A stretch of 64,000 nt of DNA from Ignavibacteria bacterium. Its GTDB lineage: Bacteria > Bacteroidota > Ignavibacteria > UBA10030 > SZUA-254. How positions within the stretch are numbered: the first letter of the stretch is position 1; every line of letters starts with the position of its first letter. The DNA lies in the NCBI GenBank assembly GCA_031379665.1, contig JANNFI010000089.1, positions 18,170-82,169 of the forward strand. Reading direction: 5' to 3'. A program made the position numbers and the translations under genes. Shown here piece by piece: positions 8,448 through 26,396 of the stretch. The notes below the pieces were generated by a model. The model ran no database searches and was not told the DNA's origin. It saw only the letters and a program-made list of their open reading frames with translations.

Positions 8448-10310
8448 ATGACATTCAATTTCCGCGACACCGCGCTCATCCCGATCTGGGAGAAGGTCCG
8501 AAGTGGCGAACGCCTCTCGATGGCCGACGGCCTGGCCCTCTACGCGACGCCGGACCTCATCTCGCTCGGAAAGATGGCGCATTTCGCCAAGCAGCAGAAG
8601 AGCGGCGACGCCGTCTATTTCGTCCTCAATCAAAAAATCGAGCACACCAACATCTGTGTCCTGTCGTGCAAGTTCTGCGACTTCGCCGTGAAGAAGGGGG
8701 ACGCCGACGCCTACGAGATGACGACCGAAGAGATCGTCTCGAAGCTCACCCCCGAGATCGCGGAGGTGCACATCACCGGCGGCATGCCCGCCGACTGGCC
8801 CTGGGACCGGTATCTCGACATTGTCCGTACAATCTGTAAAAGATTCCCGAACACCGACGTCAAGGCGTTCACCGCGGTCGAGATCGACTTCTTCCACAAG
8901 AAGTTCAAAATGCCGATCGAGGAGGTCCTCCGGCAGTTGAAAGAGGCGGGACTCAAGACGATGCCGGGCGGTGGCGCGGAAGTATTCTCCGAGCGGGTGC
9001 GGAAACTCCTCTTCAACCAGAAGATCGGTGCGAAGGGATGGTTCGGCGTGCACAAGGCGGCGCACCGCCTCGGCATCCCGACCAACAGCACACTCCTCTA
9101 CGGCCACATCGAGACGCTCGAAGAGCGGCTCGACCACATGATTCAGCTGCGCGAGGCGCAGGATGAGACGGGCGGATTCCTGACGTTCATCCCCCTCGCC
9201 TTCCAGCCGGGCGACACCGGCATCAAGCCGCGCGAACGGTTCACATCGGCCATCGACGACTTGAAGACCATCGCGATTTCCCGGTTGATGCTCGACAACT
9301 TCCCTCACATCAAAGCCTACTGGGTGATGCTCACCGAGGAGGTGGCCTCGGTCGCGCTCAACTTCGGCGCCGACGACATGGACGGCACGGTGGGCCAGGA
9401 ACGCATCGCGCACGACGCCGGCGCCACGAGCCCGATGATGCTCGCGAAGGACCAGATCATTCGCATCATCAGGGATGCCGGCAAGATACCGGTCGAGAGG
9501 GACGTCTATTATAACCCCCTCAGGGTACACGCCGACAACGTCATCGGTAAAATCCCGTACCTCAACTCACTCCCGTTTTACAGCGGTTTCGAGAAGGGGC
9601 CGTTTAAGATCCTCCCGATCGTCCCGCGGAGGATGGGGATGCTCGCGGCGGACGGACAGTTGGTGGCGGGTTTGTTTTCACTGATGGATTACTACCGGAA
9701 TGAGTCGACGCTCGAGCCGCTCGACTGGGGCATCGCCACGCGCGACCAGGTGAAGAGCGTGATGCTCTTCTCGAACCACGGCTGGGCCGGCCTCGACGGG
9801 AAGCGGATCGGCGTCACCGACGAGACCGCCACGTCCATCCAGCTTCTGCGACTCCTGCTCGGGAAGAAGTACAACGTGAATGCCGAATTCGTCCGCCTCC
9901 ACGCCGGCGTGAACAGTTATGCCGACTTCGACGCGGTGCTCCTGATCGGCGACCAGGCGCTCTACCATAACAGGCGCGGCCTCGAGGGATTCGAACTCGT
10001 CTACGACCTCGCGGCCGAGTGGTACGACTGGAAGAAGATGCCGTTCGTCTTCGCGGTGTGGGCGGTGAAGAAGGACCTCCCGGCCGCGACGAAGGCCGCC
10101 CTCTCGGCCACAATCGCGGAATCACTCCGCAGGACAGAGGGCCGCTACCGGGCGATCGGTGAACTCCACGGCAGGGTCCTGGGCCTTGACCCGTCCTACG
10201 TCGAGGAATACCTCGAGGGGTTCAATTACACTCTCGGCGACAGGGAAAAAGAATCAATGCGGGAATTCAGGAAACTCACCGCCGCAGTGAACCCGGGGGT
10301 GATGATATGA
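8448..10310 (+). CDS. Radical-SAM MqnE/MqnC-family enzyme fused to a C-terminal MqnA-like (chorismate dehydratase fold) domain
   Basis: The N-terminal ~360 aa carry the CxxxCxxC motif (CVLSCKFCDF) and resemble aminofutalosine or cyclic-DHFL synthases. The C-terminal ~250 aa start IGKIPYLNSLPFYSGF, which is MqnA/MqnD-fold like. Confidence 0.8.
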   Translation: MTFNFRDTALIPIWEKVRSGERLSMADGLALYATPDLISLGKMAHFAKQQKSGDAVYFVLNQKIEHTNICVLSCKFCDFAVKKGDADAYEMTTEEIVSKLTPEIAEVHITGGMPADWPWDRYLDIVRTICKRFPNTDVKAFTAVEIDFFHKKFKMPIEEVLRQLKEAGLKTMPGGGAEVFSERVRKLLFNQKIGAKGWFGVHKAAHRLGIPTNSTLLYGHIETLEERLDHMIQLREAQDETGGFLTFIPLAFQPGDTGIKPRERFTSAIDDLKTIAISRLMLDNFPHIKAYWVMLTEEVASVALNFGADDMDGTVGQERIAHDAGATSPMMLAKDQIIRIIRDAGKIPVERDVYYNPLRVHADNVIGKIPYLNSLPFYSGFEKGPFKILPIVPRRMGMLAADGQLVAGLFSLMDYYRNESTLEPLDWGIATRDQVKSVMLFSNHGWAGLDGKRIGVTDETATSIQLLRLLLGKKYNVNAEFVRLHAGVNSYADFDAVLLIGDQALYHNRRGLEGFELVYDLAAEWYDWKKMPFVFAVWAVKKDLPAATKAALSATIAESLRRTEGRYRAIGELHGRVLGLDPSYVEEYLEGFNYTLGDREKESMREFRKLTAAVNPGVMI

Positions 10311-11404
10311 TCCAGCTCTCTTCGGTCTACGAAAAAGTGCGGGCCGGCGGGCGCCTGACGCCTGATGAGGCGGTCGTCCTCCTGAAGCACGGCGAACTTC
10401 TCGAGCTCGGCGACCTCGCAAACGGCGTCCGCGCCGAGAAGAACCCCGTGCCGAGGGTGACATTCGTGGTCGACACCAACCCGAACTACACCAACGTTTG
10501 CAACATCGATTGCATCTTCTGCGCCTTCTACCGGCACCCGGGGGACGAAGGCGAATACACCTACAGTGTCGATCATATGATCGGCGAGTTCAAGCGGTCG
10601 GCCGCCAGCGGGGTCACCACCATCCTCCTGCAGGGGGGCGTGAACCCGGCCCTGCCGTTTTCGTACTACCTCGAAATGGTGCGCCGCACGGTGGTGGAAG
10701 TTCCCGAAGTCCATCCGCACTTCTTCTCCACATCGGAGATCATCGGGATGGCGAACGTTTCGGGGCTGAGCGTGCCGGAAGTGCTGAAACAGTTGTGGGA
10801 GGCTGGGTTGCGGACCATTCCCGGCGGCGGCGCCGAGATCCTCAACGACCGGGTCAAGAAGAAAATCAGCCACCTGAAGGGGAGCTCCGACGACTGGCTG
10901 ATGGTGATGCGCGAGGCGCACAGGCTGGGTTATCGCTCGACCGCGACGATGATGTACGGCCACCTCGAAACCGACGAGGAGCTCGTAGAGCACCTCGACC
11001 GGATCCGTCGGTTACAGGACGAGACGGGCGGGTTCACGGCGTTCGTCCCGTGGAGCTTCAAGCCGGGGAACACGCCGCTCGAGAAGATCATCCCACACTA
11101 CGCCACGCCGGTGCGCTACCTCCAGGTGCTGGCGATATCAAGAATGTATCTCGACAACTTCGACCATATCCAGGCGTCGTGGTTCTCGGAAGGAAAGAAG
11201 ACGGGACAGATCGCGCTCCACTTCGGCGCCGACGATTTCGGGGGGACGCTCTTCGAGGAAAACGTACACGCGGCGGCCAACTTCGTCAATAAGAGCAACA
11301 CCGAAGAGGTCGTGAACCTCATCCGCGAGTCGGGGTTCATTCCCGCGCAGCGGGACACGCTCTATAACATTCTGAGAGTCTTCGACCCCGCGGCGGCGGC
11401 GTAG
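10307..11404 (+). CDS. Radical-SAM MqnC/MqnE paralog (futalosine pathway)
   Basis: 365 aa with CNIDCIFCAF motif. Its ATG overlaps the upstream stop (ATGATATGA). It is a paralog of the N-domain of 8448..10310. Confidence 0.8.
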   Translation: MIQLSSVYEKVRAGGRLTPDEAVVLLKHGELLELGDLANGVRAEKNPVPRVTFVVDTNPNYTNVCNIDCIFCAFYRHPGDEGEYTYSVDHMIGEFKRSAASGVTTILLQGGVNPALPFSYYLEMVRRTVVEVPEVHPHFFSTSEIIGMANVSGLSVPEVLKQLWEAGLRTIPGGGAEILNDRVKKKISHLKGSSDDWLMVMREAHRLGYRSTATMMYGHLETDEELVEHLDRIRRLQDETGGFTAFVPWSFKPGNTPLEKIIPHYATPVRYLQVLAISRMYLDNFDHIQASWFSEGKKTGQIALHFGADDFGGTLFEENVHAAANFVNKSNTEEVVNLIRESGFIPAQRDTLYNILRVFDPAAAA

Positions 11405-11408
11405 CCGC

Positions 11409-11903
11409 TCAGGGTGCGATCCGCTTGTATTCACCCGCCAGATCGCGGTCGAGCGCTTTCCCCAACGACCGCAGCCATTTCTCCAGGTAGGCGTCATCCA
11501 TTTTCGGCGACCGGGCGAGGATGCCGCGGATGTCTTCCAGGTCGCGCGGACGCCCCGCGACGATTTTATGGATGATCAGGTCTTCAACCGCAATGAATCG
11601 CACTTCTCCGGATCCAAGAGGAACTGACACAACCCGCTGCAGGGCCGATCGCTCGTATTCGCTGAATGAAAATATCAAGTCAACCCTGATGCCGGTGGCC
11701 GTTTCGATCAGGGGGAGAACGTGCGTTTCGGAAACAAACCGCCCGACGTCCTTCGTCGCAACGTCCAGCCCTGAGCCCTCAATCGGCCGAAGGACGGATT
11801 GCAACTTGTCGATGTCGACGCCCAGGGTGATGTCAATATCGCGCGTCAGCCTTGGTTCCCCGTAATAGAGCACGGCCTGGCCGCTGATCACCATATAGGG
11901 CAT
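11409..11903 (-). CDS. Minimal nucleotidyltransferase-fold protein (MNT-like, TA-module-like)
   Basis: 164 aa. N-terminus VISGQAVLYYGEPRLTRDIDITLGVDI matches the GS...DxD Pol-beta NTase signature. Confidence 0.55.
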   Translation of the reverse strand: MPYMVISGQAVLYYGEPRLTRDIDITLGVDIDKLQSVLRPIEGSGLDVATKDVGRFVSETHVLPLIETATGIRVDLIFSFSEYERSALQRVVSVPLGSGEVRFIAVEDLIIHKIVAGRPRDLEDIRGILARSPKMDDAYLEKWLRSLGKALDRDLAGEYKRIAP

Positions 11904-11944
11904 CGAGGCCGCTGTCGAGCAGGGAGGCGAGCAGGGAGGCGAGC

Positions 11945-12190
11945 TTAACGAGGAGGGCTTGAAACATCGATGTTCAACATCGCGGCCAGCCGGATGACAT
12001 CGTCGATACCCTCCAGGGGATCGTCGGATTTGAAGTGGCCGAAATGGCGCGCCTCCGCATAGAGTCCATCCAGGATCCGCAACTTCATTTCCAGAGTGAG
12101 ATGATCCGCGGCCCTGGAACGTCGATCGAAGTCCGCATATTTATCGGGGTTCGTGATCATCTGTAAATATACGCATCTCACCAACGACAA
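11945..12190 (-). CDS. Small hypothetical protein, upstream partner of the NTase gene
   Basis: 81-aa ORF, co-directional with and 41 bp upstream of the NTase gene. No recognised domain. A possible R-x3-H motif is not a canonical HEPN Rx4-6H. Confidence 0.4.
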   Translation of the reverse strand: MSLVRCVYLQMITNPDKYADFDRRSRAADHLTLEMKLRILDGLYAEARHFGHFKSDDPLEGIDDVIRLAAMLNIDVSSPPR

Positions 12191-12236
12191 TCTATCGTTG
12201 CAGGTGGTGCGCGGGTCCCGACCCCCCCCCTGCGGT

Positions 12237-13070
12237 TTACACCAGCCGGAATTCCTTCACCGCGGGCAGTCCGACCTTCTCGCTCGCCCTCCGGTAGAGC
12301 TCCTTCAGTCCCGCCTCTCCCCTTTCTCCCATGTCGATCGTCAACTCGTTGACATACATTTTCACGAACGTTTCGCCCTTTTGGGCGTCGATCCCGCGGC
12401 CCCACTCGAGCGCGTAAGGGATCGAGTCCTCCTGGTGCTTGTATCCGAAATCGATGCTGTCCCGGAGGCCGACAGACAGATCGTGCCCCATCTTTTCCCC
12501 GAGGTCCTTCCGGACCACATCGAGTCCGAGGGGAAGGGGAAGCCCGTTCGTCTCGTCGCGCCAGAGCTCGCCGAAGTCGAGGATTTTATGGTAGCCCTGT
12601 TCCTGGTAGGTAATTTGTCCTTCGTGGATCACGACGCCTGCGTCGATCCTCCCCTCGTCGATCATCGGCATCAACTGGTCGAATGGCCGGTCGACGTGCT
12701 CTATCCCTTCGGTGAACATCCTGAAGAGGAGGGTCGCGGTCGTCAGGGGTCCGGGCGTGCCGACGGTTTTTCCCTTCAGTTCGGCGAGGGTTGTGTATTT
12801 TTTCGAGATGAGGACCGGGCCGTACCCGTCTCCCATGCTTGCGCCGGTGCGCATGATCCAGTATTTGTCCTGGACGTAGGGAAAAGCGTGCGCCGAGATC
12901 GCCGTGACTTCCAGCTCCCCCTTCATCGCGCGGACGTTCAGCGATTGGATGTCCTCGAGCATATGCTCGATCCTGATCCCCTCGAGCTTGACCCTGCCGC
13001 TGGCGAGGCCGTAGAACATGAACGCGTCGTCGGGGTCCGGGCTGTGCCCCACGCGGATGATTTTTTCCAT
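12237..13070 (-). CDS. mqnD: MqnD (1,4-dihydroxy-6-naphthoate synthase), futalosine pathway
   Basis: 277 aa with the VGHSPDPDDAFMFYGL motif typical of MqnD/MqnA-fold proteins. Confidence 0.8.
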   Translation of the reverse strand: MEKIIRVGHSPDPDDAFMFYGLASGRVKLEGIRIEHMLEDIQSLNVRAMKGELEVTAISAHAFPYVQDKYWIMRTGASMGDGYGPVLISKKYTTLAELKGKTVGTPGPLTTATLLFRMFTEGIEHVDRPFDQLMPMIDEGRIDAGVVIHEGQITYQEQGYHKILDFGELWRDETNGLPLPLGLDVVRKDLGEKMGHDLSVGLRDSIDFGYKHQEDSIPYALEWGRGIDAQKGETFVKMYVNELTIDMGERGEAGLKELYRRASEKVGLPAVKEFRLV

Positions 13071-13148: not shown

Positions 13149-14687
13149 TCAGGCCTCTTCGGCCTGCTTCTTCTCGATCCGCTTGATGGTGAGGTAGAGT
13201 GCGATCGCCACGATCGTGATGATCAGCGTGGCCACTCCCAGCCCATACCGGCGGAAGTAGAACTCGTCGATGCTCTCCTGCCCCTGCACCGCCACCACGC
13301 CGGCCACGGCGATCCCCTGGTTCACCACTTCGGCAAATTTCGGCTCGTTGAAGGCGTGCACCGCTGTGCGCGACAACAGGCGCGATTGCCGGATTTCGCG
13401 GAGTCGGAACTTCGCCTCCGAGATTTCCATCCCCTTCTGCTCGGCGTTCGTCACGAGCGAATCGGCCCGCCGTTCAGAGCGCTCGAGCGAGTCGATCATC
13501 GTCCGCATCAGCGCGGCCGCCTGGTAGCCTTTCGGGTTGTCGGCCGGCGAGTGGCAGCGGGAGCAGACCGCCTCGTCGGAAGTCCCGAGGAGGGCGTCGG
13601 TGGCGTTGATGATCGCGTGGTTGCCATGGCACGTCTCACACTCCGGCAGCCCGAGTTCGTCGTACGCCTTCTTGTGGGGGCTCTCGGCGAACAGCGATGC
13701 GTTCATCGCGTGGCAGGTCCCGCACACTTTCGAGATGGAGGCCACTTCCGGCGGCGCCGCGCCGTGGTTGCCGTGACAGTCGTTGCACGAGGGGGCTCCG
13801 AGGTCGTGTTTTTCCAGAAGAGCTTTGCCGTGGACGCTGGTGCGGAACTCGGCGAGCTGGTCGGTCCCGATGGAATACTCCTTCATATACTCGGCGTTCG
13901 CGTGGCAGGTGCCGCAGGTGTTGGGCAGGTTGATCGCGTTGACGCTCGATTTCGCGTCGACGGCCCTGAGGATGTCGTGGCTGCCGTGGCAACTGGAGCA
14001 GACGGCCACATTTGAGTCTCCCTTCGCGAGCCTCATCCCGTGGACGCTCGTTTTGTATTTCTCCTCCTGGTCGATCGGCAGGGCCTGGTTGTACGACCGC
14101 ATGAAGACAGCGCTGGAGTGACAGGTCGCGCAGGTCTTGTTGACGTTCAGGTGATTGACGGGGGACCGGGGATCCTTGACGCTTTTGATGTCGTGGACGC
14201 CGTGGCAGGTGACGCACTGGACCATTTTCTCCACCCCCGAGACGGCCATTTTCCCGTGGACGCTGGCCGCGAGGTTTTCCATCTGGTTCAGACTGAGCGA
14301 CGACTTGAAGTTCGTCTTCATCACTTGCGCGTCGGAGTGGCACCGCTGGCAACTCTTCGAGATGTCGTCGCCCTTCGGGACGCCGATGAATCCGTGGTCG
14401 GCCGACATCGACTTTTCCTGGTCGTCGGAAGATGGATCACCGCCGTGGCACCCCGCGCACGATATCCCTTTCTGATAATGTATGTCGGCCGCGTATTTCA
14501 TCCCTACCGCTTCTCCAAGGGCCTTGTGGCAGGTGAGGCAATTGTCCGGCTTCGCGGTCGCGGTCCTGAACAGGGCGTCGGCGGATTGCGCGTGGAGCGC
14601 GCCGGCGAGGATGAGCTGGATAGCGGCGATGACGATCGGTAGCGACGGCGCGATGCGGATGACCGTTCGTGTTTTCATGAGAGCCAT
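13149..14687 (-). CDS. Undecahaem c-type cytochrome with C-terminal transmembrane anchor
   Basis: 11 CxxCH motifs counted (CLTCH, CAGCH, CQRCH, CVTCH, CATCH, CSSCH, CGTCH, CNDCH, CGTCH, CETCH, CSRCH). Signal peptide [37 protein letters not shown]-terminal helix [18 protein letters not shown]. The alternative ATG at 14678 overlaps the cyt b stop (ATGA). The track extension to 14969 is an antisense overlap. Confidence 0.8.
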
Positions 14688-15769
14688 CCGATGATGGTCA
14701 TGACGATGATGAACATGACGGCGATGAGGCCGCCGTAGGTGACGAGCCGGCTCTTCTTCCCCCTCGCGCTGCTCCTGTCCCAGAACGGCACCAGCGTCCA
14801 GAGCAGCCCGGCGAGGCCGAAGAACATGATGCCGAGCACCTCCCCTTCGAAGACGAGGATGTTCGCCGGAAGGTACTTGAGCGTCTGGAACATGAACATG
14901 AAGTACCACTCCGGTTTGATCCCCGCCGGGGCCGACGCGAAGGGGTCGGCCTTCACGCCGAGCTCCCACGGGAAGAGCACCGCGAGCACGGCCAGAAGGT
15001 TCAGGACGATGAGCCAGAGCAGGAGGTCCCGGTAGAGGAAGTTCGGGAAGAAGGGCATCTTCTTCATTGGGATGGGCGGCGCCGCGCCCGGGGCCGCGAC
15101 ATCGGAGCCCAATGGCTCGCTCATCCCCTGCCGCTGGACCAGAACGAGGTGGATCCCGAGGAGGACGGTGAAGAGGCCGGGAAAGACCGCCACGTGGAAC
15201 CCGAAGAACCTCGAGAGGGTCGCGCCGGTGACGTCGGGGCCGCTCCGGAGGAATTCCAGGATCGGCTCGCCGATGAACGGCACCACGCCGGCGATGTCGG
15301 TGCCCACCTTGGTGGCGAAGAACGCCAGCTCGTTCCAGGGAAGCAGGTATCCGCTGAACCCGAAGCCCATCCCGAGGAAGAGCATCAGCATCCCGGTGAG
15401 CCAGGTGATCTCGCGCGGTTTGCGGTAAGTCCGTTCGAAGAAGACGCTGAACATGTGGATCATCGCCGACAGGATGAAGAGGTTCGCCGCCCAGCTGTGG
15501 ATCGACCGGATCAGCCAGCCGAACTCCACCTTCGACATGATATATTGAATGCTCTCGTACGCCAGGTCCTCGCTGCCTTTATAGTAGAGGAGCAGCATGA
15601 TCCCGGTGACGACCTGGATGATGAAGAGGAAGAGCGTCACACCGCCGAAGTAGTACCAGATGGAGTGGCGGTGCACGGGCACGTACTTCTTCCCCATGAA
15701 GTTCACCAGGTCCTCGAGGTGGACCCGCTCGTTGACCCAGCCGTAGGCCTTTTCGAGGGCCTTCTTCAT
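14675..15769 (-). CDS. Cytochrome b of a bc/b6f-type complex
   Basis: [21 protein letters not shown]..., polytopic with conserved His-containing helices. Start ATG at 15769 overlaps the Rieske stop (ATGA). Confidence 0.85.
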
Positions 15770-16227
15770 ACAATTTTCGCGATCACGATTTCGTCCCCCT
15801 GGACGACGACCTTGTACGGTTCGAGCGGTCTTGGCGGCGGTCCCGCGACGTTCCGGCCGGTCAGGTCGTACTTGCCGTTGTGGCAGGCGCACCAGATCAT
15901 CCCGATCTCCTTGTTGAACTGAACGGTGCAGTCGAGGTGCGTGCAGGTGGCGTCGAACGCCTTGAGCTCGTCGTCGGCCGTGCGCACGAGGATCACCGGC
16001 TTGTTGCCGAACTTGATGATCTTTCCTGAATCGCGCGCAAGGTCGTCCTTCTTCCCCGCGTTCACCGACTTCACCTCCACCTCCGCCTGCACCGGCGGCT
16101 TCAGGTACGCGAGGATGGGGTAGAAGATCGAGGCGAAGAAGGCGAGAAGGCCGCCCGAGAGGACGTACCGTAAAAAGTTTCGTTTTCCCTCATCGGGCGC
16201 CGGCCGGGAGCTGGTTGCGTTCATCAT
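15766..16227 (-). CDS. Rieske 2Fe-2S protein
   Basis: CTHLDC...CACHNGKY Rieske boxes, N-terminal TM helix, 153 aa. Confidence 0.9.
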
Positions 16228-16260
16228 TCCATGTGCTCAGTCGTTACGGGGTCGTCCGGG

Positions 16261-17760
16261 CTATTGCGCGCCCGGCGCGTGACACTCGCTGCAGTTCATT
16301 TCCATCCAGGCGTCGCCGATGTCGACCGGGTGTTTGTAATCGATCCCCCCGAGCGAAATTCTCAGTGTGTCCTCCTCGAATTTCTGCGCGAGGATCGTAT
16401 GGCAGGTGTTGCAGTCCTTCGAGAGAACCTTCCCCTGCTCGTTGACGTGCTTGCCGTCGTGGCAGCGGAAACAGCCGTTATAATAGAGGTGCCCCAGGTT
16501 GTCGGGAAACTTCCTCCAGTCGGTCTTCATCTCGGGGAAGTAATTCCGGTTGTAAATCTTCTGGACCTCCGCGATGGCGCTGTCGAGCGTCGGCTTCCCC
16601 GACGCGAAAACCTCCGGGTGGTTGTCCCGGTAATAGCCTTCCATCGTGAGCCGGATGGTGTCGAGCGCGCCCTCCCTGGTGGAGTAGTCTGCCTCGAGCG
16701 CCTCGACGCTCACCGACTTCACCGACGGCAGCGACGGGCTGATCCAGCCGAGCGACATCACGTGGTTCACCGAGCGGGCTGGTGGATGGTAGATGTGCGA
16801 CGGGCGGTTGTGGCAATCGATGCAGTCCATCCGGCGCGTGAAGGCGGTCTCGAGCGAATCCTCCGTGACCTCGACCTCGGTGCTCCGGTAGATCGTCTCC
16901 GCGCCGTCCGGTGTCCTCGACCTGACCCACGGGATCACCTGGCGCCCGCGGTCGAGCGCCTTGTAGGTTACCTCGTGCGCGATGTTCATGTGCCAGTGGA
17001 TGCCGGAGGTGGGCCCCGCCTCTGCGTTTCCTCCCCCGATTTTCATCAGCAAATTAATGTCCCACCGGGTGTTTTTGTCGTCGGCGAGGTAGTAGGTGTT
17101 CGTCCGCTGTTTCTCACTGAAGAAGTGCTTCGGCCAGTGACACTGTTCGCACGTCCCCTGCGCCGGACGGAGGTTTTCGATCGGGGTGGGGATCGGCTTC
17201 GGGTATTTGTCGAAGGCGACTGCGTAAAGCTGGTAACTACCGGAGATCTTCGCCTTCACGAACCAGTCCGCCCCCGACCCGATGTGGCACTGCACGCAGC
17301 CCACCCTCGCGTGGGGGGAGAACTGGTAGGCGGTGTACTCGGGCTCCATCACCGTATGGCACGTTTCCCCGCAGAACTCGTCGGACTCCGTGTACTCGTA
17401 CGCCTTGAAGCTGCCGAACGCCGAGAAGAGAAGGAGCGCGAGGCCGCCGGCCGAAATGCTCACGAACGCGGTCCGGTGCCTCGGGTTGTTCAGGTCGATC
17501 TGCGGGAGGTGCAGACCGTGGGGCTTGCCGAGCCGCTCGCGGCGATTTTCGCGCATCACGCCGTAGGTCATCAGCGCGATCCCCAGGAGGAGGAACACCG
17601 GCATGATCACGAACGTGATGATGCCGACGTAGGGATTCTCGACGGCGGCCATCAACTCGAGGATCGTCAGGAACAGGATCAGGCCGAAACTGATGCCTGC
17701 GATGGCCGCCCCGATGAGCGTGACAAGGTTGTAGAACGATTGGGGGAAGATGCGTTTCAT
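16261..17760 (-). CDS. Heptahaem membrane cytochrome c with three N-terminal TM helices (ImcH-like architecture)
   Basis: 7 CxxCH (CGETCH, CVQCH, CEQCH, CIDCH, CFRCH, CNTCH, CSECH). Three hydrophobic helices precede the first haem. The ATG at 17760 (MKRIFPQSFYNL) is preferred. Confidence 0.75.
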   Translation of the reverse strand: MKRIFPQSFYNLVTLIGAAIAGISFGLILFLTILELMAAVENPYVGIITFVIMPVFLLLGIALMTYGVMRENRRERLGKPHGLHLPQIDLNNPRHRTAFVSISAGGLALLLFSAFGSFKAYEYTESDEFCGETCHTVMEPEYTAYQFSPHARVGCVQCHIGSGADWFVKAKISGSYQLYAVAFDKYPKPIPTPIENLRPAQGTCEQCHWPKHFFSEKQRTNTYYLADDKNTRWDINLLMKIGGGNAEAGPTSGIHWHMNIAHEVTYKALDRGRQVIPWVRSRTPDGAETIYRSTEVEVTEDSLETAFTRRMDCIDCHNRPSHIYHPPARSVNHVMSLGWISPSLPSVKSVSVEALEADYSTREGALDTIRLTMEGYYRDNHPEVFASGKPTLDSAIAEVQKIYNRNYFPEMKTDWRKFPDNLGHLYYNGCFRCHDGKHVNEQGKVLSKDCNTCHTILAQKFEEDTLRISLGGIDYKHPVDIGDAWMEMNCSECHAPGAQ

Positions 17761-17875
17761 TCTGGCGTCGTTGGCTGGAAACAGCTGGCAATGTAATGAT
17801 TCCAGCGGTGAATGCAAATCTCAGCGGCGTTCGCGGCGGGGCTGGAGGCCCCCGTGAGCACACGATTCGTCCGGT

Positions 17876-20125
17876 TCATCGACCGTCGCCCGGCGGCTTT
17901 TCGGGTTCCTGTTCCGTCCCGTCCCCGGCCGCGAGCTCTTCCCTCGTCCTGTCGGCCACGATCCGTTGCAGCTCGAGCGGATGGTCCTCTTCCATCTCTT
18001 CCTCGGTCAGCGTCCCCTTCCAGAACGCCACGTTCAGGGGATACACGTCCGGGTTGAAGATCACGAAGTAGAAGTGCCACACGACGATGGCGAGCGTCGC
18101 CAGCCACGCCTCGTAGTAGTGTATGGTTCGGGCCACGTCATATCCCATTTTCGTGAGGAGGCCGATGAACGTGTTGTCGAACCACATGACGACGCCTGTT
18201 ACGCCCATGATGAAGGTGCCCCATATGAGAGCCCAGTATTCGGCTTTCTCGATGTAGGAAAACCGGTCGAAGAGCGGGCGCTCCGCTTTGAGGCCGAGGT
18301 TGTACCTCACCATCGCGACGGCGTCCCTGGCGTCACGGAGCCGCGGGAGCATGTCGTTGATAAGGCGTCGCCCCGGATGGGTGAAGAGGACGTACCAGAC
18401 GTGGTAGAAGCTCGCCCCCAGCATCACCACCCCGGCGACGCGGTGGATGACGCTGCGGGTGTCGAACACCGATCCGCTCAGCGACCTGATCCACTGCACC
18501 CACCACGCCTCGGGGAAGCGGAGCATGAACCCGGTAACGACCAGCGTCGTGAAGCTCAAAAGGAGCGCTGCGTGCTGGAACCTTTCGTTGGCCCCCATCC
18601 TCGGGTAGAGCTCGTGGCTCGTATGGGGGTGGGGGATGAGGCCGCGCCGGACCATCAGTTTCCGGCGTGATTTCCTCACGAAGTCGAGCGCGTTGTGGAC
18701 GAGCATCCCCCCGATAATGACCACGATCAACGCGATGTAGGCCGTCGAGATCCAGTAGAGCGTCGGCTCTTCCGCGCGGGAGGTCTCGTCGACGTGGACC
18801 TTGCCGACGGTAAACCGTTCGTTCGCCCCGGGATGGCAGCTGCCGCAGGTCTTTGCGAGGTTCGCGTGGTTGATCGTGGAGGTGGAATCGTCCGACGACC
18901 TGATGTTGTGCGTCCCGTGGCAGCTCGCGCAGTTGGCGACCTCGATCGAGCCGCCGCGGATGGCGAGGCCGTGGTAGCTGTCGGAGAAAGTGCGGAAACG
19001 GTCGCTCGCGATGCCGTACTTGGTCGAGAGGGCGGCGGAGCTGTGGCACGGCGAGCAGACCTGTGCCGAGAGGTTTTTCTTCGAGACGGGCGAGTTCGGG
19101 TCGTCGTGCCTGAGAATCGTATGTTCCCCGTGGCAGTCGGTACAGGTCGGCGCGTCGACAACCCCCTTCCGCACGGCCTCGCCGTGTACGCTCCCGTTGT
19201 AAACGTTCGCGATCTCCTCGTGACACTTGGAGCAGGTTTCGGAGATGTTCATCTTGCTGACTTTCGCCGTCGGGTCGTACCCCTTCGCCATCTCGTGGCT
19301 GCCGTGGCAATCGACGCAGTTGGGCGCGTCACCGTTACCGTTGACCAGCGCCCGCCCGTGGACGCTCTGTTCGTACGCGGCGATGAAGCCCGCCGACGGC
19401 GAGGACCTTTCCCTGACATCGGGGTTGTCGAGGTGGCAACTCAGGCAGAGGTGTTCCTGCGCCAGCTTCAAACCGACGGCGTCGTCGGGGTGGCTCGCAG
19501 ACGTGATGTCGTGGTCGTGACAGCTTATGCATTCCGGCGCGCCCTTCACCCCTGCGGAAAACGCCACGCCGTGCGCCGATGCGGCAAACTGCCCGACCAC
19601 ATCGTCGTGGCACCGGCTGCAGCCGTCGGAAATGTTCGCGCGGTTGAACGGCGATTCCTTCGTGTCGGGTGAAATGACGTCGTGGGTACCGTGACAGTCC
19701 TTGCACGAGACCGTGGGTTCTTCCTTCGCGGCGATTGCCCTCGCCATCCCGGGATGGAACGAGTGTTTCAATTCGACGCCCCTGTGGCAGGTGAGGCACT
19801 CCACCGGCCGTATGGTTTTCTTGTGCGGGAGCTCGTTGATGTCGAAGCCCGCGTGACAGGCCGAACAGACCAGTTTCCGATGCGGCGACCTGTCGAGGAC
19901 TGCGGCGTCGACGTGGAGCGACACCGGCGACCCGTTTCTCTCGGTCGCGAGCGATGCGTCGGAGTGGCAGGCCAGGCAGTCGTCCTTCGACTGGGCCCTC
20001 GCGGGACCGTTCAACATCCAGAACGCGGCCAGGAGGAACGCCACGGCCGCGAGGGCCACCACGAGCATCAGCCGCGCGAGCGGACTGCGTGCGGTGTATC
20101 CGGCGGATTGATCGTTGGTGTTCAT
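17876..20125 (-). CDS. 13-haem cytochrome c fused to a C-terminal dihaem b-type membrane domain (CbcL-like architecture)
   Basis: 13 CxxCH in the N-terminal ~450 aa. The C-terminal ~280 aa has 4-5 TM helices with conserved His pairs (HRVAGV...YHVWY, HYYEAW...WHFYF), resembling FdnI/HydC Ni_hydr_CYTB domains. Confidence 0.8.
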   Translation of the reverse strand: MNTNDQSAGYTARSPLARLMLVVALAAVAFLLAAFWMLNGPARAQSKDDCLACHSDASLATERNGSPVSLHVDAAVLDRSPHRKLVCSACHAGFDINELPHKKTIRPVECLTCHRGVELKHSFHPGMARAIAAKEEPTVSCKDCHGTHDVISPDTKESPFNRANISDGCSRCHDDVVGQFAASAHGVAFSAGVKGAPECISCHDHDITSASHPDDAVGLKLAQEHLCLSCHLDNPDVRERSSPSAGFIAAYEQSVHGRALVNGNGDAPNCVDCHGSHEMAKGYDPTAKVSKMNISETCSKCHEEIANVYNGSVHGEAVRKGVVDAPTCTDCHGEHTILRHDDPNSPVSKKNLSAQVCSPCHSSAALSTKYGIASDRFRTFSDSYHGLAIRGGSIEVANCASCHGTHNIRSSDDSTSTINHANLAKTCGSCHPGANERFTVGKVHVDETSRAEEPTLYWISTAYIALIVVIIGGMLVHNALDFVRKSRRKLMVRRGLIPHPHTSHELYPRMGANERFQHAALLLSFTTLVVTGFMLRFPEAWWVQWIRSLSGSVFDTRSVIHRVAGVVMLGASFYHVWYVLFTHPGRRLINDMLPRLRDARDAVAMVRYNLGLKAERPLFDRFSYIEKAEYWALIWGTFIMGVTGVVMWFDNTFIGLLTKMGYDVARTIHYYEAWLATLAIVVWHFYFVIFNPDVYPLNVAFWKGTLTEEEMEEDHPLELQRIVADRTREELAAGDGTEQEPEKPPGDGR

Positions 20126-20132: not shown

Positions 20133-20972
20133 TCAGCGCGCGAGTTTCACGTCGTTGATCGCCTCGACCACGAGGGGAAAATACCGGTCGAGGGCGCATT
20201 CGACGTCGTCGCGCAGGTTGCAGCTTCCGCCCGGAGACTGGTGCACGCAGACCGAACAGACTTTTTCCCTCAGCCGTGCGACGAATGGCCCGATGTCGTC
20301 GCCTCCGGTGGTGAGCACGATGTCGATGATCTCAGGCAGGTAACGGTTGATGGCACACTCGTCAAAGGTGGAGGTGACGCAAAGCCCCGTCGGGGTGCGG
20401 TCGAGGCATTTCGCGCACACCCTCTGCCGGATCTCCCGGAGATACAGTTCTTCGTGCGACATGGAGTTCTCCCCTTCCATTTCCCAGTTTGTGGTTTCGG
20501 CAGGCTTCCGCGCGGTCCGTCCGGGCTTCACGACCATCACCGGTATGGAGGCGCCTCGCAGGATCTCCCCGGCGATTCCACCGGTGCGGACAGGATCACC
20601 CGCCGGCTCCCCTCCGGCCGGAAGCGGGAGCACGATGATGTCCATCCCTTCCTCCCGCGCGAACCTCAGGATCTCCGCGGCGGGCACCCCCCTGCGGACG
20701 ATACAGGCAAGCCGGGAATTCGGCCTGACCTTCTTCAGGAAGAACTCTTCCATCGCGTGGTATTTTTTCCGGAGATCCGGATCATCCTCCGCCGGTGATG
20801 CGTGATTTCCCGGGGCGAACCTCTCTTCGGGCGGGGTGATGACGTGAATCAGGTATATCTGTGATTTTTTTCCGTCGGAGAGGGCCAGGGCGGCATCGAG
20901 CGCGCATAATGAGGTGTCGGTGAGGTCGACCGGTACCAGAATCTTGTCGATATGTGCGGCTTTCTTCGACAT
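20133..20972 (-). CDS. Universal stress protein domain fused to a duplicated 4-Cys C-terminal module
   Basis: UspA-like N-terminus (KILVPVDLTDTSLCALDAALAL...VLPLPAGG). C-terminal repeats are VCAKCLDRTPTGLC..ECAINRYLP and VCSVCVHQSPGGSC..ECALDRYFP. Lies 7 bp upstream of the CbcL-like gene. Confidence 0.7.
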   Translation of the reverse strand: MSKKAAHIDKILVPVDLTDTSLCALDAALALSDGKKSQIYLIHVITPPEERFAPGNHASPAEDDPDLRKKYHAMEEFFLKKVRPNSRLACIVRRGVPAAEILRFAREEGMDIIVLPLPAGGEPAGDPVRTGGIAGEILRGASIPVMVVKPGRTARKPAETTNWEMEGENSMSHEELYLREIRQRVCAKCLDRTPTGLCVTSTFDECAINRYLPEIIDIVLTTGGDDIGPFVARLREKVCSVCVHQSPGGSCNLRDDVECALDRYFPLVVEAINDVKLAR

Positions 20973-21033
20973 ACCTGTATGAATAATAGACATCCGCGGA
21001 CACACGGGGTATGACCTCTGAAAGGTTCCGATA

Positions 21034-21139: not shown

Positions 21140-21853
21140 CTAGTCGGGAATGCGTGCCGCCTCTCGAAGGGCGCGCAGGTTCACAATGCTGATCTTTTTC
21201 CCCTCGAGAACGATCGTCCCCTCCCTCGCGAGTTCGGAGAGCACTCGGATGACCGTCTCCGACACCGTGCCGATGTAGCTGGCGATTTCTTCCCTGGTGA
21301 GCCTGCTGCGCAGCGTGTGCCCGTCGTCCTCGGTGCCGTAGAATTCCTTCAGCATCAGGAGCGTCTCGGCCAGACGCTCCCTCACCTGTTTCTGGGCGAG
21401 TGACACCTGCTTCTGTTCGGCCCTGGCGAGGTCCTGCGTCAGTTGACGCATGATGCCTGCGGTGAGCGCGGGGTTTTCTTTCAACAATAGTTGGAAGGTC
21501 TGGCGTGGAATGAAGCAGATCGACGCGTCCTCCAGCACGGTGGCGGTGAGTTCGTACGGCGTCCCGCTCACGAGCGCCCGGTACCCGACCACGTCCCCCT
21601 CGCGCGCCAGGCGGACGATCTGTTCACGCCCCGCCTCGCCGACTTTCGTCAGCTTGACCTTGCCCTGATTGAGGCAATAGAGTCCCGACGGGTAATCGCC
21701 CTCGTAGAAGAGGACCTGGCCGCTCCTGTGGAAGTTGCATCCTTTGTGGAGTTGGAGTTTTCCGAGTTCCTCCTGGGAGAGGACGCTGAACATCGAATGG
21801 AGCCGCGGCAGGCAGGTCTCGCAGTGCGGTATCTCGAAAAGATTTTTCATCAC
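21140..21853 (-). CDS. Crp/Fnr-family transcriptional regulator with N-terminal Cys cluster
   Basis: cNMP-binding domain plus C-terminal HTH (EIASYIGTVSETVIRVLSELAREG). The N-terminal HCETC...C pattern is reminiscent of Fnr. Confidence 0.8.
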   Translation of the reverse strand: MMKNLFEIPHCETCLPRLHSMFSVLSQEELGKLQLHKGCNFHRSGQVLFYEGDYPSGLYCLNQGKVKLTKVGEAGREQIVRLAREGDVVGYRALVSGTPYELTATVLEDASICFIPRQTFQLLLKENPALTAGIMRQLTQDLARAEQKQVSLAQKQVRERLAETLLMLKEFYGTEDDGHTLRSRLTREEIASYIGTVSETVIRVLSELAREGTIVLEGKKISIVNLRALREAARIPD

Positions 21854-21854
21854 G

Positions 21855-22790
21855 CTATAAAATCTCGGAGATCTCGTGAAGGGTGAAGCGCGTGCGTTTC
21901 CCCTTGAGCGCGACGTCGTTGAACGTTTCCCTTGGGCGCACCCGCCCGAAGACCTCGCGCAGCGCCGCGTCGGAAATGAGCATCGACGTGCCGGTCTGTT
22001 TGTTGGCCTCCTCGATTCGCTCGGCCACGTTCACCGCATCGCCAATGACGGCCATTTTTTCCATGTTGGCCATGCCAATGGTGCCGATCACCACAGGGCC
22101 GTAATGGATCCCGATGCGGACACGGAACTTCCGCCGGTACATCGCCTGCAGGTAGGGGTTCAGCGAATCGACCTCCCAGAGCATCTCGAGTCCGGCGCGG
22201 ATCGCGCGGTAGACCGGATCAGGAGCGTCGTCGATCCCGAAGAGCGCCATGATGCCGTCGCCGATGTAGTCGTTGATCCGGCCGCCGTGAGAGTCGATCA
22301 CCCGCCCCATTGTGATGAAGTACCTCCGGAGCGCGTGGATGACATCGTACGCCGGGAGCGACTCCGCGAACGATGTGTAATCGCCGATGTCCGCGAAGAG
22401 GATGGCCAGGTGTTTCTCCTCTCCGACCGACCCTAGCTTGAGACCATGGCCCGTCTGGTCGGCGAGCTGAATGTCGAGCGTGTCGAGGACCGTACGCCGG
22501 ACGGTGACGTCGCCGTTGACCCTGGTCTGACAGGCGAGGCGCACCTGGGGATCGAAGTTGAGCCTGCCCGCAATTTTCTCTTCGGCGCCCTGGCGCGGCG
22601 AGCAACGGTCGAGGCCGGCGATTACCACGACACGGCAGGTGGAGCACCTGGCCTTCCCGCCGCAAACGTGGACGTGGGGGATCCCGGAATCGAGGGAGGC
22701 CTCGAGGATGGTGGTCTCTCCGGATGCCTCCATCTCTTTCTCGTCGGGGAGCATCAAGATCTTGTTCATCGCCTCACCGTCAGTTGCCAT
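21855..22790 (-). CDS. 2Fe-2S ferredoxin domain fused to class III adenylate/guanylate cyclase catalytic domain
   Basis: N-terminus has CGGKARCSTCRV...C (plant-type ferredoxin). The C-terminal CHD has FADIGDYTSF...RIGIHYGPVVIGTIG...GDAVNVAERIE. An alternative start at 22769 (MNKILMLPDEK) also fits. Confidence 0.8.
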   Translation of the reverse strand: MATDGEAMNKILMLPDEKEMEASGETTILEASLDSGIPHVHVCGGKARCSTCRVVVIAGLDRCSPRQGAEEKIAGRLNFDPQVRLACQTRVNGDVTVRRTVLDTLDIQLADQTGHGLKLGSVGEEKHLAILFADIGDYTSFAESLPAYDVIHALRRYFITMGRVIDSHGGRINDYIGDGIMALFGIDDAPDPVYRAIRAGLEMLWEVDSLNPYLQAMYRRKFRVRIGIHYGPVVIGTIGMANMEKMAVIGDAVNVAERIEEANKQTGTSMLISDAALREVFGRVRPRETFNDVALKGKRTRFTLHEISEIL

Positions 22791-23562: not shown

Positions 23563-23931
23563 CTATTGTAGCAGTACTGTTCCATTAAAGCGTGAATAAT
23601 GACAACTGGTTACAGGATCTGTGGGGACCAGGGCCCCATTGGCATGAGCCAGCGTGTTCCGTGCGACGACGCCGCGTAAACTACAATGGTAAAGTTTCTT
23701 CCGGAGCGCACCAAGACATGTTTCGATATCCCGGAGACTTTTTCTGAGGGTAATCTGGGCAAATGCCAGAGCTACGAACTGACTGCGCCGCGAGAACCGT
23801 TTGACGTAACGATCCCCCTGATATCGTCTGACGCACCGGCGGAACTCCGGCATCGGGAGGAAGTCCCTGAGTTGAGCGAAGACCGTTTTTCCCCTGTGTT
23901 CATCTACCCATCCTAACCCGAGGAGAAACAT
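23563..23931 (-). mobile_element. IS4-family (DUF4372-type) transposase N-terminal fragment, truncated remnant
   Basis: MFLLGLGWVDEHRGKTVFAQLRDFLPMPEFRRCVRRYQGDRYVKRFSRRSQFVALAFAQITLRKSLRDIETCLGA matches the N-terminal region of IS4/ISPg1-like transposases. The ORF stops after 122 aa and the DDE catalytic part is absent. Confidence 0.6.
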
Positions 23932-24205
23932 CAGAATAGGTGGGGAATTGACACTGTCAAAGTTCTAATCTATTGCTCTCTTTTAATGTCGTAACGCGGT
24001 CACGTACAATGTGTTACAAGGATTTATGAAAAGTTTTTTGAGACAGTATTGCTATTGTATCTCAAGATAATCGTTCCTACCTTACGGTATGTTACAACAT
24101 TCAGCGATTTACATATCGGAAGTTCGGGACGCACGTGAACGATTATTAAGGTAGGCGTCAAGCTTCAATTCTCGCTTAGAAACTCGGTGGAGATTTAATC
24201 AAGCG

Positions 24206-26213: not shown

Positions 26214-26396
26214 TCACGAGCAAAATTGATTCTTCAAATTTCCATATGTAGGCGAAATAGCTTTTGATGGATCGTACCCTAAAAATTCGACAATTTTGGA
26301 AGACCGGCACTTTCCAGGATTCTCCCTTCCACTTTCCCACCCCAAGTACGTATTTCGATTGACACCTAGAAGTGCCGATGCTTGATAGGCAGTCAA
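26214..26396 (-). pseudogene. XRE-family HTH regulator, 5'-truncated at the island/host junction
   Basis: LTAYQASALLGVNRNTYLGWESGRENP is a canonical HTH_XRE second half. Upstream in frame the HTH continues as LRQRRVDLNL into GC-rich sequence with no ATG/GTG before a stop, so the ORF-track start is a TTG. Confidence 0.45.

Follow-up and report, generated by a model that had tools for sequence, protein, structure and literature searches.

Organization of the locus

The window, the whole 64-kb stretch of Ignavibacteria DNA that we analysed, carries an imcH-like gene on its minus strand (16261..17760). The gene runs from an ATG at 17760 to a stop codon at 16263..16261 and encodes an inner-membrane cytochrome c of the heptahaem type, 499 aa long, with three TM helices, seven haem motifs (one CX3CH, six CXXCH) and a quinol-oxidising core resembling that of NrfH. 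Re-checking the open reading frame returned exactly the coordinates given in an earlier note on this DNA. A TTG at 17817 extends the frame upstream; we dropped this start and prefer the ATG at 17760, because homologues are 497–499 aa long and align from residue 1. GC3 of imcH is 0.88, similar to that of the adjoining genes. A plus-strand frame (16231..17796, 521 aa; GC1 0.87, GC3 0.55) was rejected as a shadow ORF.

In an operon of six cistrons, imcH is the third; the operon encodes, in order, a Usp protein, a CbcL-like protein, ImcH, a Rieske subunit, a cytochrome b and an 11-haem cytochrome c, all on the minus strand. The first gene (20133..20993, start codon uncertain) encodes a Usp domain (PF00582, E=2e-15) and holds the same place in loci L001, L002, L008, L023 and L030. 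The second (17876..20125), on whose nature as a CbcL-like cytochrome c/b fusion the earlier note was silent, encodes a 749-aa protein in which a signal anchor at the N-terminus is followed by 13 CXXCH motifs (residues 50–431) and then by five hydrophobic helices, with a C-terminal cytochrome b561/FdnI-type domain (PF01292, E=2e-17 at 511–692).

Downstream of imcH, the Rieske [2Fe-2S] subunit (15766..16227, 153 aa; PF00355, E=1.3e-13) has one N-terminal TM helix, the cluster-ligand motifs CTHLDC...CACH and, as read from its translation, a KR-type Tat-like N-terminus; its matches to b6f PetC-like NCBIfam models fall below cut-off. The cytochrome b (14675..15769, 364 aa; PF00033, E=9e-49) is a fusion of b6-like and subunit-IV-like parts, with the His pairs Hx13H and Hx14H and the PEWY Qo motif and without a haem-ci cysteine. 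We filed it neither as cytochrome b6 (233 bits) nor as ExtP (201 bits, cut-off 290), since both scores are below the equivalog cut-offs. The last gene (13149..14678) encodes an 11-haem cytochrome c that has a signal peptide and is anchored by a C-terminal TM helix. Counted from the ATG at 14678 it is 509 aa long, like its orthologue in L001; a start at 14687 would give 512 aa. It belongs to the Rieske/cytochrome b module as its cytochrome c subunit. Cluster ligands, four haem-ligand histidines, PEWY and a cytochrome c subunit, the features of a Rieske/cytochrome b complex, are all present downstream of imcH.

The spacing of these genes is uneven. The Rieske and cytochrome b genes overlap by 4 nt (ATGA), as do the cytochrome b and 11-haem cytochrome c genes, whereas 115 nt separate the CbcL-like stop (17876) from the imcH ATG, and 33 nt separate the imcH stop from the Rieske ATG (16227). 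These gaps argue that imcH is a module of its own. The earlier note had described imcH as translationally adjacent to the Rieske and cytochrome b genes: it does lie directly beside the Rieske gene, but translational overlap occurs instead among the Rieske, cytochrome b and cytochrome c genes.

Two candidate regulators lie upstream on the same strand (21140..22790), a protein with Fer2 and adenylate/guanylate cyclase domains (22790..21855) and a cNMP-binding Crp-family regulator (21853..21140). This pair, 88–90% identical, is also found upstream of the operon in L001. Genes of the futalosine pathway of menaquinone biosynthesis flank the operon. Neither an outer-membrane porin-cytochrome conduit nor a terminal reductase is encoded within the 64-kb window, and Rfam and tRNA scans of the window gave no matches. 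A promoter and terminator scan of the operon was uninformative, with one promoter-like site (1.5 expected) and 10 terminator-like sites (6.6 expected) under a sigma-70 consensus that is unsuited to this phylum.

The gene product is a member of the ImcH family

The 499-aa protein contains seven haem motifs. The first, C130-GET-C134-H135, is a CXXXCH motif placed right after the membrane domain, and six CXXCH motifs follow at C155, C204, C313, C430, C450 and C490. All 14 cysteines of the protein sit within these motifs; when its residues were shuffled 20,000 times, the mean was 0.03 haem motifs and the maximum two. The earlier note had thus counted correctly, but had read all seven as CxxCH. Its three N-terminal hydrophobic helices were borne out both by a Kyte-Doolittle scan (15–33, 45–63 and 98–116) and by an AlphaFold2 model (12–37, 43–76 and 93–124). 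The model also contains a beta-rich insert of ~100 residues (216–310).

By sequence or by fold, NrfH is the sole solved relative of this protein. Residues 98–186 match PF03264 (NapC/NirT) above the Pfam gathering score (E=1.2e-9), a PDB sequence search returned NrfH 2j7a_C (E=4e-4), and Foldseek matched 2vr0_F with a TM-score of 0.61 over 113 columns; in the fold search, 2vr0_F and 2j7a_C had a probability of 1.00 and an rmsd of 2.7–2.8 Å. The haem-1 TM helix, the first four haems and K171, the counterpart of NrfH K82, superpose on those of the NrfH/NapC/CymA group (NrfH structures 2J7A and 2VR0). Unlike that group, ImcH adds two TM helices, three haems and the beta-rich insert, binds haem 1 through CX3CH instead of CXXCHxM, and lacks the gene for a dedicated reductase partner.

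A CX3CH first motif is the hallmark of the ImcH family (Levar 2014, PMC4251993; Zhong & Shi 2018, PMC6295460). The prototype, ImcH of G. sulfurreducens (GSU3259), is an inner-membrane heptahaem menaquinol dehydrogenase needed for acceptors above ~−0.1 V. Its length is tabulated as 507 aa, its motifs at 132/156/205/311/428/448/486 and its TM helices at 13–35/45–67/100–122 (Zhong & Shi 2018, Table S3, PMC6295460). Judged by these tabulated positions and a residue list, the window protein is closely alike: it has three N-terminal TM helices, CX3CH followed by six CXXCH and an NrfH-like core, with motif and helix positions that differ by at most 4 residues. The quinol-site residues reported for GSU3259, E127, H137, K173, Q179 and Y188 (preprint 10.1101/2023.05.03.539133), correspond at a constant offset to E125, H135, K171, Q177 and Y186, so that the E/H/K/Q/Y set around haem 1 has identical spacing in the two proteins. 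This spacing is kept in 23 representatives of the family, and H135 and K171 are invariant in alignment A1.

Homology searches led to the same family. We obtained 3444 cluster representatives at E<=1e-3, the full-length ones numbering in the thousands, and the best homologues are full-length and colinear and carry the CX3CH motif. A homologue from a Desulfuromonadales MAG is 44% identical over 488 aa (E=1e-154); the published range between Geobacter-group ImcH and other phyla is 31.5–49% (PMC6295460). No Geobacter-labelled sequence turned up among 421 homologues screened for the published residue numbering, or in a second search seeded with a Desulfuromonadales member. Ignavibacteria ImcH proteins have been catalogued since 2018 (PIU45462.1, PIP78050.1, GBD86519.1 and Melioribacter roseus WP_014855859.1; PMC6295460, Table S3). 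They resemble the window protein in length (496–498 aa), motif positions (~130/154/203/312/429/449/489) and their three TM helices, and the 499 aa of the window protein, with seven haems at conserved positions, fit the family size of ~495–519 aa. Because all published architectural features are present, including the diagnostic CX3CH first motif, its sequence strongly supports the gene as an ordinary member of the known ImcH family, in line with the ImcH-like reading of the earlier note.

The homology to NapC/NirT raises the question of whether the protein is instead an anchor of the NapC/NirT/NrfH type that feeds a dedicated periplasmic reductase for nitrite, nitrate, TMAO or DMSO. The N-terminal PF03264 match and an NCBIfam NrfH match (E=1e-14) point this way, as do automated annotations such as "nitrate/TMAO reductase-like tetraheme cytochrome c subunit". 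However, the NrfH match reaches 54.6 bits against a cut-off of 134.2 and covers residues 108–209 only, TorC scores far below its cut-off, and three TM helices with seven haems replace the one helix and 4–5 haems of such anchors. Genes for nrfA, napA, torA and dorA are also absent from the operon, from the window and from the called genes of L001 and L002–L005. We therefore rejected an NrfH/NapC identity on score, coverage and architecture, and consider a reductase anchor exceedingly improbable. Best homologues of the one-helix tetrahaem NrfH/NapC type, which the earlier note had named as what would refute its reading, are not what the searches gave.

Gene neighbourhoods of imcH

The earlier note held that imcH normally stands alone. 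This is so in G. sulfurreducens, where the gene is monocistronic (PMC4251993). A published neighbourhood survey covered c-type cytochrome genes only, and neither "Rieske" nor "cytochrome b" was found in a text search of that paper (Zhong & Shi 2018, PMC6295460). We examined 83 loci outside Desulfuromonadota, with a genome-collection scan that gave the best 80 relatives (at least 42% identity). In 43 of 73 evaluable loci, imcH is preceded by a b561-type gene, CbcL-like or CbcB-like, that has the same orientation and ends no more than 800 nt away; this arrangement spans Ignavibacteriota, Acidobacteriota, Binatia, Dadabacteria, Thermoanaerobaculia and others. Of the 83 loci, 24 have Rieske and cytochrome b genes within 10 kb of imcH, and in 23 of these the strand is the same; ~1% would be expected if the genes were unlinked. 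Thus, the stand-alone description holds for Geobacter and not for the family. The position of imcH in the window, between the CbcL-like and the Rieske/cytochrome b genes, is real and conserved; this synteny was observed directly, like the sequence architecture and the homology. In the searchable open-access literature we found no description of imcH synteny with Rieske/cytochrome b or b561-type genes, which may be published elsewhere.

A short spacer and recurrent co-location are also what a real functional partnership would produce. ImcH could be an obligate partner of the Rieske/cytochrome b complex or one of its physical subunits, perhaps serving as an additional haem wire or giving a supercomplex a second quinol site. 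About a dozen species (the window, L001, L005–L009, L011–L013, L015 and L071) have imcH 16–47 nt upstream of the Rieske gene, and co-location within 10 kb exceeds the ~1% expected. The same Rieske/cytochrome b/multihaem c module occurs within 10 kb of imcH in Acidobacteriota, KSB1, Calditrichota, Melioribacteraceae and Verrucomicrobia, with cytochrome b 57–61% identical. Against this, the Rieske gene is directly 3' of imcH in 14 of 74 evaluable loci, and this direct adjacency is limited to a close Ignavibacteriota clade (ImcH at least 61% identical) and one other MAG, L026, while 50 of the 74 have no Rieske gene nearby.

Order and spacing also vary. Gene order differs in Acidobacteriota, KSB1, Calditrichota and Verrucomicrobia; in Acidobacteriota the Rieske/cytochrome b module lies upstream of cbcL-imcH, and in L061, L081 and L049 1.2–3.2 kb of other genes separate imcH from the module. 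In L002, a complete cytochrome c/FeS/NrfD module is inserted between imcH and the Rieske gene. Upstream of imcH, L001 has an additional cytochrome c/b561 pair, and L005 has genes for ETF and an acyl-CoA dehydrogenase. Moreover, the bc module possesses a translationally coupled, C-terminally anchored 11-haem cytochrome c of its own, and a scan of 10 long representatives showed no fusion of ImcH to a Rieske protein or cytochrome b6. We regard this partnership as improbable. The earlier note had taken adjacency to imply that ImcH and the bc complex are coupled, physically or functionally. Conservation of the operon, and the recurrence of the association in several phyla, make functional co-regulation plausible. 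A physical link is unsupported: direct adjacency is clade-specific, gene order varies elsewhere, and whole modules can be inserted, as in L002.

The fusions that we saw join ImcH to b561-type cytochromes or to extra haem domains only. Two representatives, P0130 (734 aa) and P0175 (771 aa), are of the PF01292::ImcH type, and their layout is topologically consistent; in L086 a b561::ImcH fusion gene follows a gene for a 511-aa multihaem cytochrome. Together with the b561-type genes upstream of imcH in many phyla, these fusions are what one would expect if ImcH and the b561-type dihaem cytochrome encoded upstream (CbcL-like or CbcB-like) act in physical contact, with the two extra N-terminal helices of ImcH docking to form a joint quinol-oxidising unit. 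Each fusion, however, is a singleton on one contig and may be an assembly or gene-calling artefact, and in the window the CbcL-like gene and imcH are 115 nt apart. The imcH and cbcL genes of G. sulfurreducens are unlinked, and deleting one or the other gives distinct potential-dependent phenotypes, which argues for independent function. A physical b561 partnership is a possibility that we rate as unlikely.

The same doubt attaches to a broader form of this proposal, in which ImcH outside Geobacter would be non-autonomous and belong to a multi-phylum menaquinol-oxidase island whose core is a b561-type cytochrome physically partnered with ImcH. Besides the adjacency of the two genes in 43 of 73 loci and the rare b561::ImcH fusions, it draws on the Rieske/cytochrome b/11-haem module, which is added, under putative cNMP/Crp control, in Ignavibacteriota and some Acidobacteriota. 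If this were true, ImcH would dock through its two extra helices, and its pathway would be tied mechanistically to that of CbcL instead of being an alternative to it.

Proposed function of the operon

We infer as follows what the window protein oxidises, which way its electrons flow, with which partners it works and what part it plays in extracellular or periplasmic electron transfer. In the prototype, menaquinol is oxidised, protons are released to the P side and electrons pass to PpcA. By analogy, menaquinol would bind at the periplasmic face of the membrane next to haem 1, which is predicted to be held by the CX3CH motif with H135 as proximal ligand and Q177 as distal residue, and with E125, K171 and Y186 close by. 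The two menaquinol protons would be released to the periplasm, and the two electrons would pass down the seven-haem chain to a solvent-exposed last haem, which may hand them to periplasmic or membrane-anchored multihaem cytochromes. Menaquinol oxidation by ImcH would thus be an electroneutral step.

The direction could also be the opposite, with ImcH reducing menaquinone at the expense of Fe(II), a cathode or another extracellular donor, and the Rieske/cytochrome b complex aiding uphill flow. CymA and CbcL/MtoC homologues have been implicated in both directions elsewhere, and multihaem chains are reversible in principle. ImcH, however, has so far been tied to quinol oxidation only, with no homologue found in known metal oxidisers (PMC6295460); its haem potentials of −350 to −150 mV overlap those of its periplasmic acceptor PpcA, and the window holds no pointer to lithotrophic electron uptake. 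We consider reverse operation very unlikely.

In the forward direction, the operon would comprise three separate menaquinol:cytochrome c oxidoreductase modules, namely the CbcL-like 13-haem/b561 fusion, ImcH, and the Rieske/cytochrome b6-like/11-haem cytochrome c complex, the last of which may be capable of a Q cycle. They lie behind the Usp gene and the cyclase/Crp regulator pair and beside the menaquinone biosynthesis genes. Each module has an architectural counterpart in Geobacter. The CbcL-like protein resembles CbcL (Cbc1, GSU0274) in architecture, a multihaem c fused to a HydC/FdnI-type dihaem cytochrome b membrane domain, but has 13 haems instead of nine; GSU0274 has 619 aa, 9 haems and 6 TM helices, and catalogued CbcL/MtoC/MtrH homologues have 9–19 haems. 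The Rieske/cytochrome b/multihaem c module is the counterpart of ExtMNOPQS/Cbc6 (Rieske ExtO, cytochrome b ExtP and multihaem cytochromes), although the window cytochrome b is a single fused polypeptide and scores 201 bits against the 290-bit ExtP cut-off. The split multihaem c and b561 pair in L001 resembles CbcBA (Cbc5) in architecture.

The settings differ. The Geobacter Cbc and ImcH modules lie at separate loci, whereas those of the window form one operon; GSU3259 is monocistronic, and the window gene lies between a cbcL-like gene and a Rieske/cytochrome b module. The hosts are also distant, Desulfuromonadota on the one hand and Ignavibacteriota/Bacteroidota on the other, with ~44% identity to the Desulfuromonadales branch. 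Within the window we saw neither a triheme partner of the Ppc type nor an outer-membrane conduit.

The three modules are most likely parallel, co-regulated exits from the menaquinol pool and not subunits of one complex. They may differ in energy yield and working potential, as Geobacter ImcH, CbcL and CbcBA do; that they would be used in parallel according to acceptor potential is an extrapolation from Geobacter genetics. We conclude that the window gene probably encodes an ImcH-family menaquinol dehydrogenase that, as third cistron of a three-module operon, provides one of several co-regulated routes in parallel.

Implications

ImcH is among the few sequence markers for predicting extracellular electron transfer from genomes, and those who discovered it pointed out that such predictions would gain from knowing what it interacts with (PMC4251993). 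The window protein brings nothing new to the ImcH family. According to the census, however, the Geobacter pattern, in which three alternative quinol oxidases are unlinked, is not typical. The gene directly before imcH in most other phyla is CbcL-like or CbcB-like, and in one Ignavibacteriota clade the genes of a Rieske/cytochrome b/11-haem complex follow as well, the whole forming a single operon next to menaquinone biosynthesis genes. The census thus yields concrete candidates for co-regulated or interacting partners of ImcH, and it suggests a compact, transferable respiratory island in the Ignavibacteriota and Acidobacteriota of soil and sediment.

An ImcH-family gene on the minus strand

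Long open reading frames overlap on both strands at 16261..17817 of the window, whose G+C content is ~61%. The GC3 of imcH (minus strand, 17760..16261) is 0.88, similar to that of neighbouring genes, and its product has >8000 homologues, the top one 89% identical. A 521-aa frame on the plus strand was rejected as a real gene, its inverted codon-position GC pattern being that of a shadow frame. Because the homologues are 497-499 aa long and their alignments begin at residue 1, we take the start to be the ATG at 17760, exactly where the earlier note had placed it, giving a product of 499 aa.

This protein has three hydrophobic helices (residues 15-33, 45-63 and 98-116) and seven haem c motifs, as the note had read; the motifs, however, are not all CXXCH, the first being CX3CH (C130-GET-C134-H135) and the remaining six CXXCH. 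All 14 cysteines lie within the seven motifs, and residue shuffles average 0.03 motifs. The loop RENRRERLGKPH behind helix 2 carries positive charge, so the C-terminal domain is predicted to be periplasmic.

These are exactly the features that define ImcH in the literature (Levar et al., PMC4251993; Zhong & Shi 2018, PMC6295460): three TM motifs, an atypical CX3CH beside the membrane domain and six CX2CH within 495-519 aa (Zhong & Shi 2018). The prototype, GSU3259 of Geobacter sulfurreducens, has 507 aa, helices at 13-35, 45-67 and 100-122, and motifs at 132, 156, 205, 311, 428, 448 and 486 (Table S3 of the same paper); the shorter window protein has as many of both, its motifs at the near-equal positions 130, 155, 204, 313, 430, 450 and 490. 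Around the presumed menaquinol site of ImcH, H137, Q179, E127, K173 and Y188 are conserved, Q179 being the unusual distal residue of haem 1 (preprint 10.1101/2023.05.03.539133). Their counterparts here are H135, Q177, E125, K171 and Y186, at a constant offset of 2 from GSU3259 numbering, and this spacing was found again across ImcH-family representatives. Identity to a Desulfuromonadales MAG protein, the nearest proxy for GSU3259, is 44% over 488 colinear residues, inside the 31.5-49% published for Geobacter-group ImcH against other phyla (Zhong & Shi 2018).

A one-helix tetrahaem NrfH/NapC protein was the alternative that the note had named as its refutation. Pfam places a NapC/NirT N-terminal domain at residues 98-186 and, C-terminally, c7/c3-type haem domains, and the sole solved relative is Desulfovibrio NrfH, matched by sequence (2j7a_C, E=4e-4, residues 100-209). 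An AF2 model of the protein (mean pLDDT 82.8, pTM 0.73) retrieved the same protein in Foldseek (2vr0_F/2j7a_C, TM 0.61, rmsd 2.7-2.8 A, probability 1.00) and no other significant match. The NCBIfam NrfH match is nevertheless partial and well under cut-off, and with three helices and seven haems this alternative is excluded. Since architecture, the GSU3259 position table, pocket residues and proxy identity agree, we assign the window protein with high confidence to the ImcH family, GSU3259 being compared by tabulated positions and residues; the reading "ImcH-like" is thus borne out. At E<=1e-3 the family has 3444 representatives, 778 of them also reaching E<=1e-30.

The cytochrome operon and its surroundings

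The minus-strand operon begins with a Usp-domain protein (20993..20133) and a 749-aa protein of CbcL architecture (20125..17876). The latter carries 13 CXXCH and a C-terminal cytochrome b561/FdnI-type domain, whereas CbcL of G. sulfurreducens (GSU0274) has 9 haems with a like kind of membrane domain. Behind imcH follow the genes of a bc module: a Rieske protein (16227..15766; CTHLDC...CACH), a cytochrome b with fused b6-like and subunit-IV-like parts (15769..14675; Hx13H, Hx14H, PEWY) and an 11-haem cytochrome c that has a signal peptide and is anchored at its C-terminus (14678..13149). The Rieske and cytochrome b genes overlap by 4 nt (ATGA), as do those for cytochromes b and c; imcH lies 33 nt from the Rieske gene and 115 nt from the CbcL-like gene. 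Of the translational adjacency to Rieske and cytochrome b claimed earlier, the adjacency to the Rieske gene stands, but tight translational coupling is found only among the bc genes.

The operon is preceded by genes for a cNMP-binding regulator of the Crp family and for an adenylate/guanylate cyclase with a ferredoxin domain (21140-22790). Many Acidobacteriota loci (L039, L041-L043, L046, L050, L051 and L055) also have Crp-like genes upstream of cbcL-imcH, a hint of conserved cNMP/Crp control. Just upstream of these regulator genes, a low-GC islet (23600-26400; GC 0.37-0.52 versus ~0.61 window-wide) looks like a horizontally acquired insertion. It holds a transposase-like fragment (23931..23563, minus), a TlpA/redoxin-like protein (24206-24709, plus), a 73-aa Cys-rich peptide (24826-25047, plus), a 252-aa protein with no Pfam match (25180-25938, plus) and a small XRE-like HTH protein (26396..26214, minus). 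Beyond it are two tandem DUF1800/DUF1501 gene pairs (26482-33291, minus), the DUF1501 members with T9SS C-terminal sorting domains, and more T9SS-tailed proteins of BNR/sortilin type (44241-47615 and 51317-53425). These sorting domains and the names of best homologues assign the organism to Ignavibacteriota/Bacteroidota.

The 3' end of the operon adjoins a futalosine-pathway menaquinone biosynthesis cluster (5128-13070), downstream on the other strand, with UbiA (5128-5985), UbiD (6539-8377), a radical-SAM MqnC/E-like and MqnA-like fusion (8448-10310), a second radical-SAM gene (10307-11404) and an MqnA-like gene (13070..12237). A small AbiEii/DUF6036-type nucleotidyltransferase, toxin-antitoxin-like, sits between menaquinone genes (11409-11903, minus). 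Neither an outer-membrane conduit nor a terminal reductase was seen within the window.

Conservation of the locus

A family alignment was used to scan GTDB at one genome per species; of the 598 relatives found, the best 80 were kept, and these come from Ignavibacteriota, Acidobacteriota, Bacteroidales, Gemmatimonadota, KSB1, Calditrichota, Verrucomicrobiota, Dadabacteria, Binatia and others. Neighbourhoods at 83 loci were searched by tblastn with the window's proteins as queries. Of 74 evaluable loci, 14 have a Rieske gene <=700 nt downstream of imcH; apart from one Cytophagia-labelled MAG, all belong to a close clade (ImcH >=61% identical). Rieske and same-subfamily cytochrome b genes occur together within 10 kb of imcH at 24 of the 83 loci, sharing its strand in 23 cases. 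In Acidobacteriota and KSB1 this module precedes cbcL-imcH; in Calditrichota, Melioribacteraceae and Verrucomicrobia, other genes separate it from imcH. Of 73 evaluable loci, 43, drawn from many phyla, have a b561-type gene (CbcL-like fusion or CbcB-like) ending <=800 nt upstream of imcH.

The earlier note held ImcH to be normally stand-alone. This is so in G. sulfurreducens, where imcH is monocistronic (Levar 2014, PMC4251993), but outside that species imcH is usually clustered, its commonest neighbour being a b561-type cytochrome and not the bc complex. The premise, which had made the context of imcH here look surprising, thus fails for the family as a whole.

Contig look-ups for three close homologues revealed the island again, varying in its modules. 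L001 (ImcH 89% identical), which shares the window's menaquinone-gene neighbourhood, carries two extra genes between the CbcL-like gene and imcH, for a 672-aa multihaem cytochrome and a stand-alone b561 protein, a pair resembling CbcBA by architecture. In L002 a complete multihaem c/4Fe-4S/NrfD module separates imcH from Rieske, and in L005 ETF and acyl-CoA dehydrogenase genes are inserted upstream of imcH. In L002 (17252-19504), L004 (8516-10768) and L005 (14529-16772), the gene immediately after that of the bc-module cytochrome c encodes a CcmF-like haem lyase (~750 aa), which the window's cluster lacks; this enzyme could be reserved for an atypical motif, CX3CH for instance. Between imcH and Rieske, L081 (2127-3782) and L049 (12126-13766), from Melioribacteraceae and Calditrichota, carry a ~550-aa protein without assigned function, and a KAP-NTPase-like 598-aa gene follows imcH in L010 (4735-6531), at the expected Rieske position.

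Probable functional rather than physical coupling

The bc module is co-located with imcH in ~29% of loci; were the locus unlinked, ~1% would be expected, given a 4-Mb genome. Being far above chance, this supports a functional link, e.g. co-regulation or a common electron-acceptor pool. Co-location might also suggest that ImcH is a subunit of the Rieske/cytochrome b complex, but gene order and spacing vary among loci, whole modules can be inserted, only the three bc genes are tightly coupled in translation, and the bc module has a dedicated membrane-anchored cytochrome c. Of the "physical or functional coupling" proposed earlier, the functional part is therefore supported and the physical part argued against.

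Gene fusions were surveyed with Pfam in ten ImcH-family representatives that are unusually long. C-terminal extensions are extra haem domains, one protein has an N-terminal Macro domain, and no Rieske or cytochrome b6 fusion was found among the ten. In P0130 and P0175, a PF01292 b561 domain is fused ahead of a complete ImcH; the P0130 gene (L086, 4261-6465) directly follows that of a 511-aa multihaem cytochrome, start and stop overlapping. As each fusion is a singleton, they point weakly to b561, rather than the bc complex, as a possible ImcH partner.

Proposed role and significance

Beyond the observed architecture, homology and synteny, we infer a substrate, a direction, partners and a physiological acceptor. 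By homology with characterised ImcH and NrfH, menaquinol would be oxidised at the periplasmic face beside haem 1, its protons going to the periplasm, and electrons would pass along the seven haems to multihaem cytochromes that are either periplasmic or anchored. The operon most likely provides three parallel, co-regulated menaquinol exits differing in energetics: the Rieske/cytochrome b complex would conserve energy via a Q cycle, ImcH would be electroneutral, and the CbcL-like protein may be dissipative. Geobacter, which uses ImcH, CbcL and CbcBA according to potential, offers an analogy.

The window protein is a further member of a known family already recorded in Ignavibacteria, where ImcH of 496-498 aa shows the same pattern (Zhong & Shi 2018, Table S3). 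Within the searchable open-access literature, neither the wide spread of the cbcL-imcH pairing nor its joining with a Rieske/cytochrome b/11-haem module in one operon seems to have been described; the M. roseus genome paper reports bc1 genes to be absent from that organism. The finding is not of a new kind of system; its value is for genome-based prediction of extracellular electron transfer and for the search for ImcH partners.
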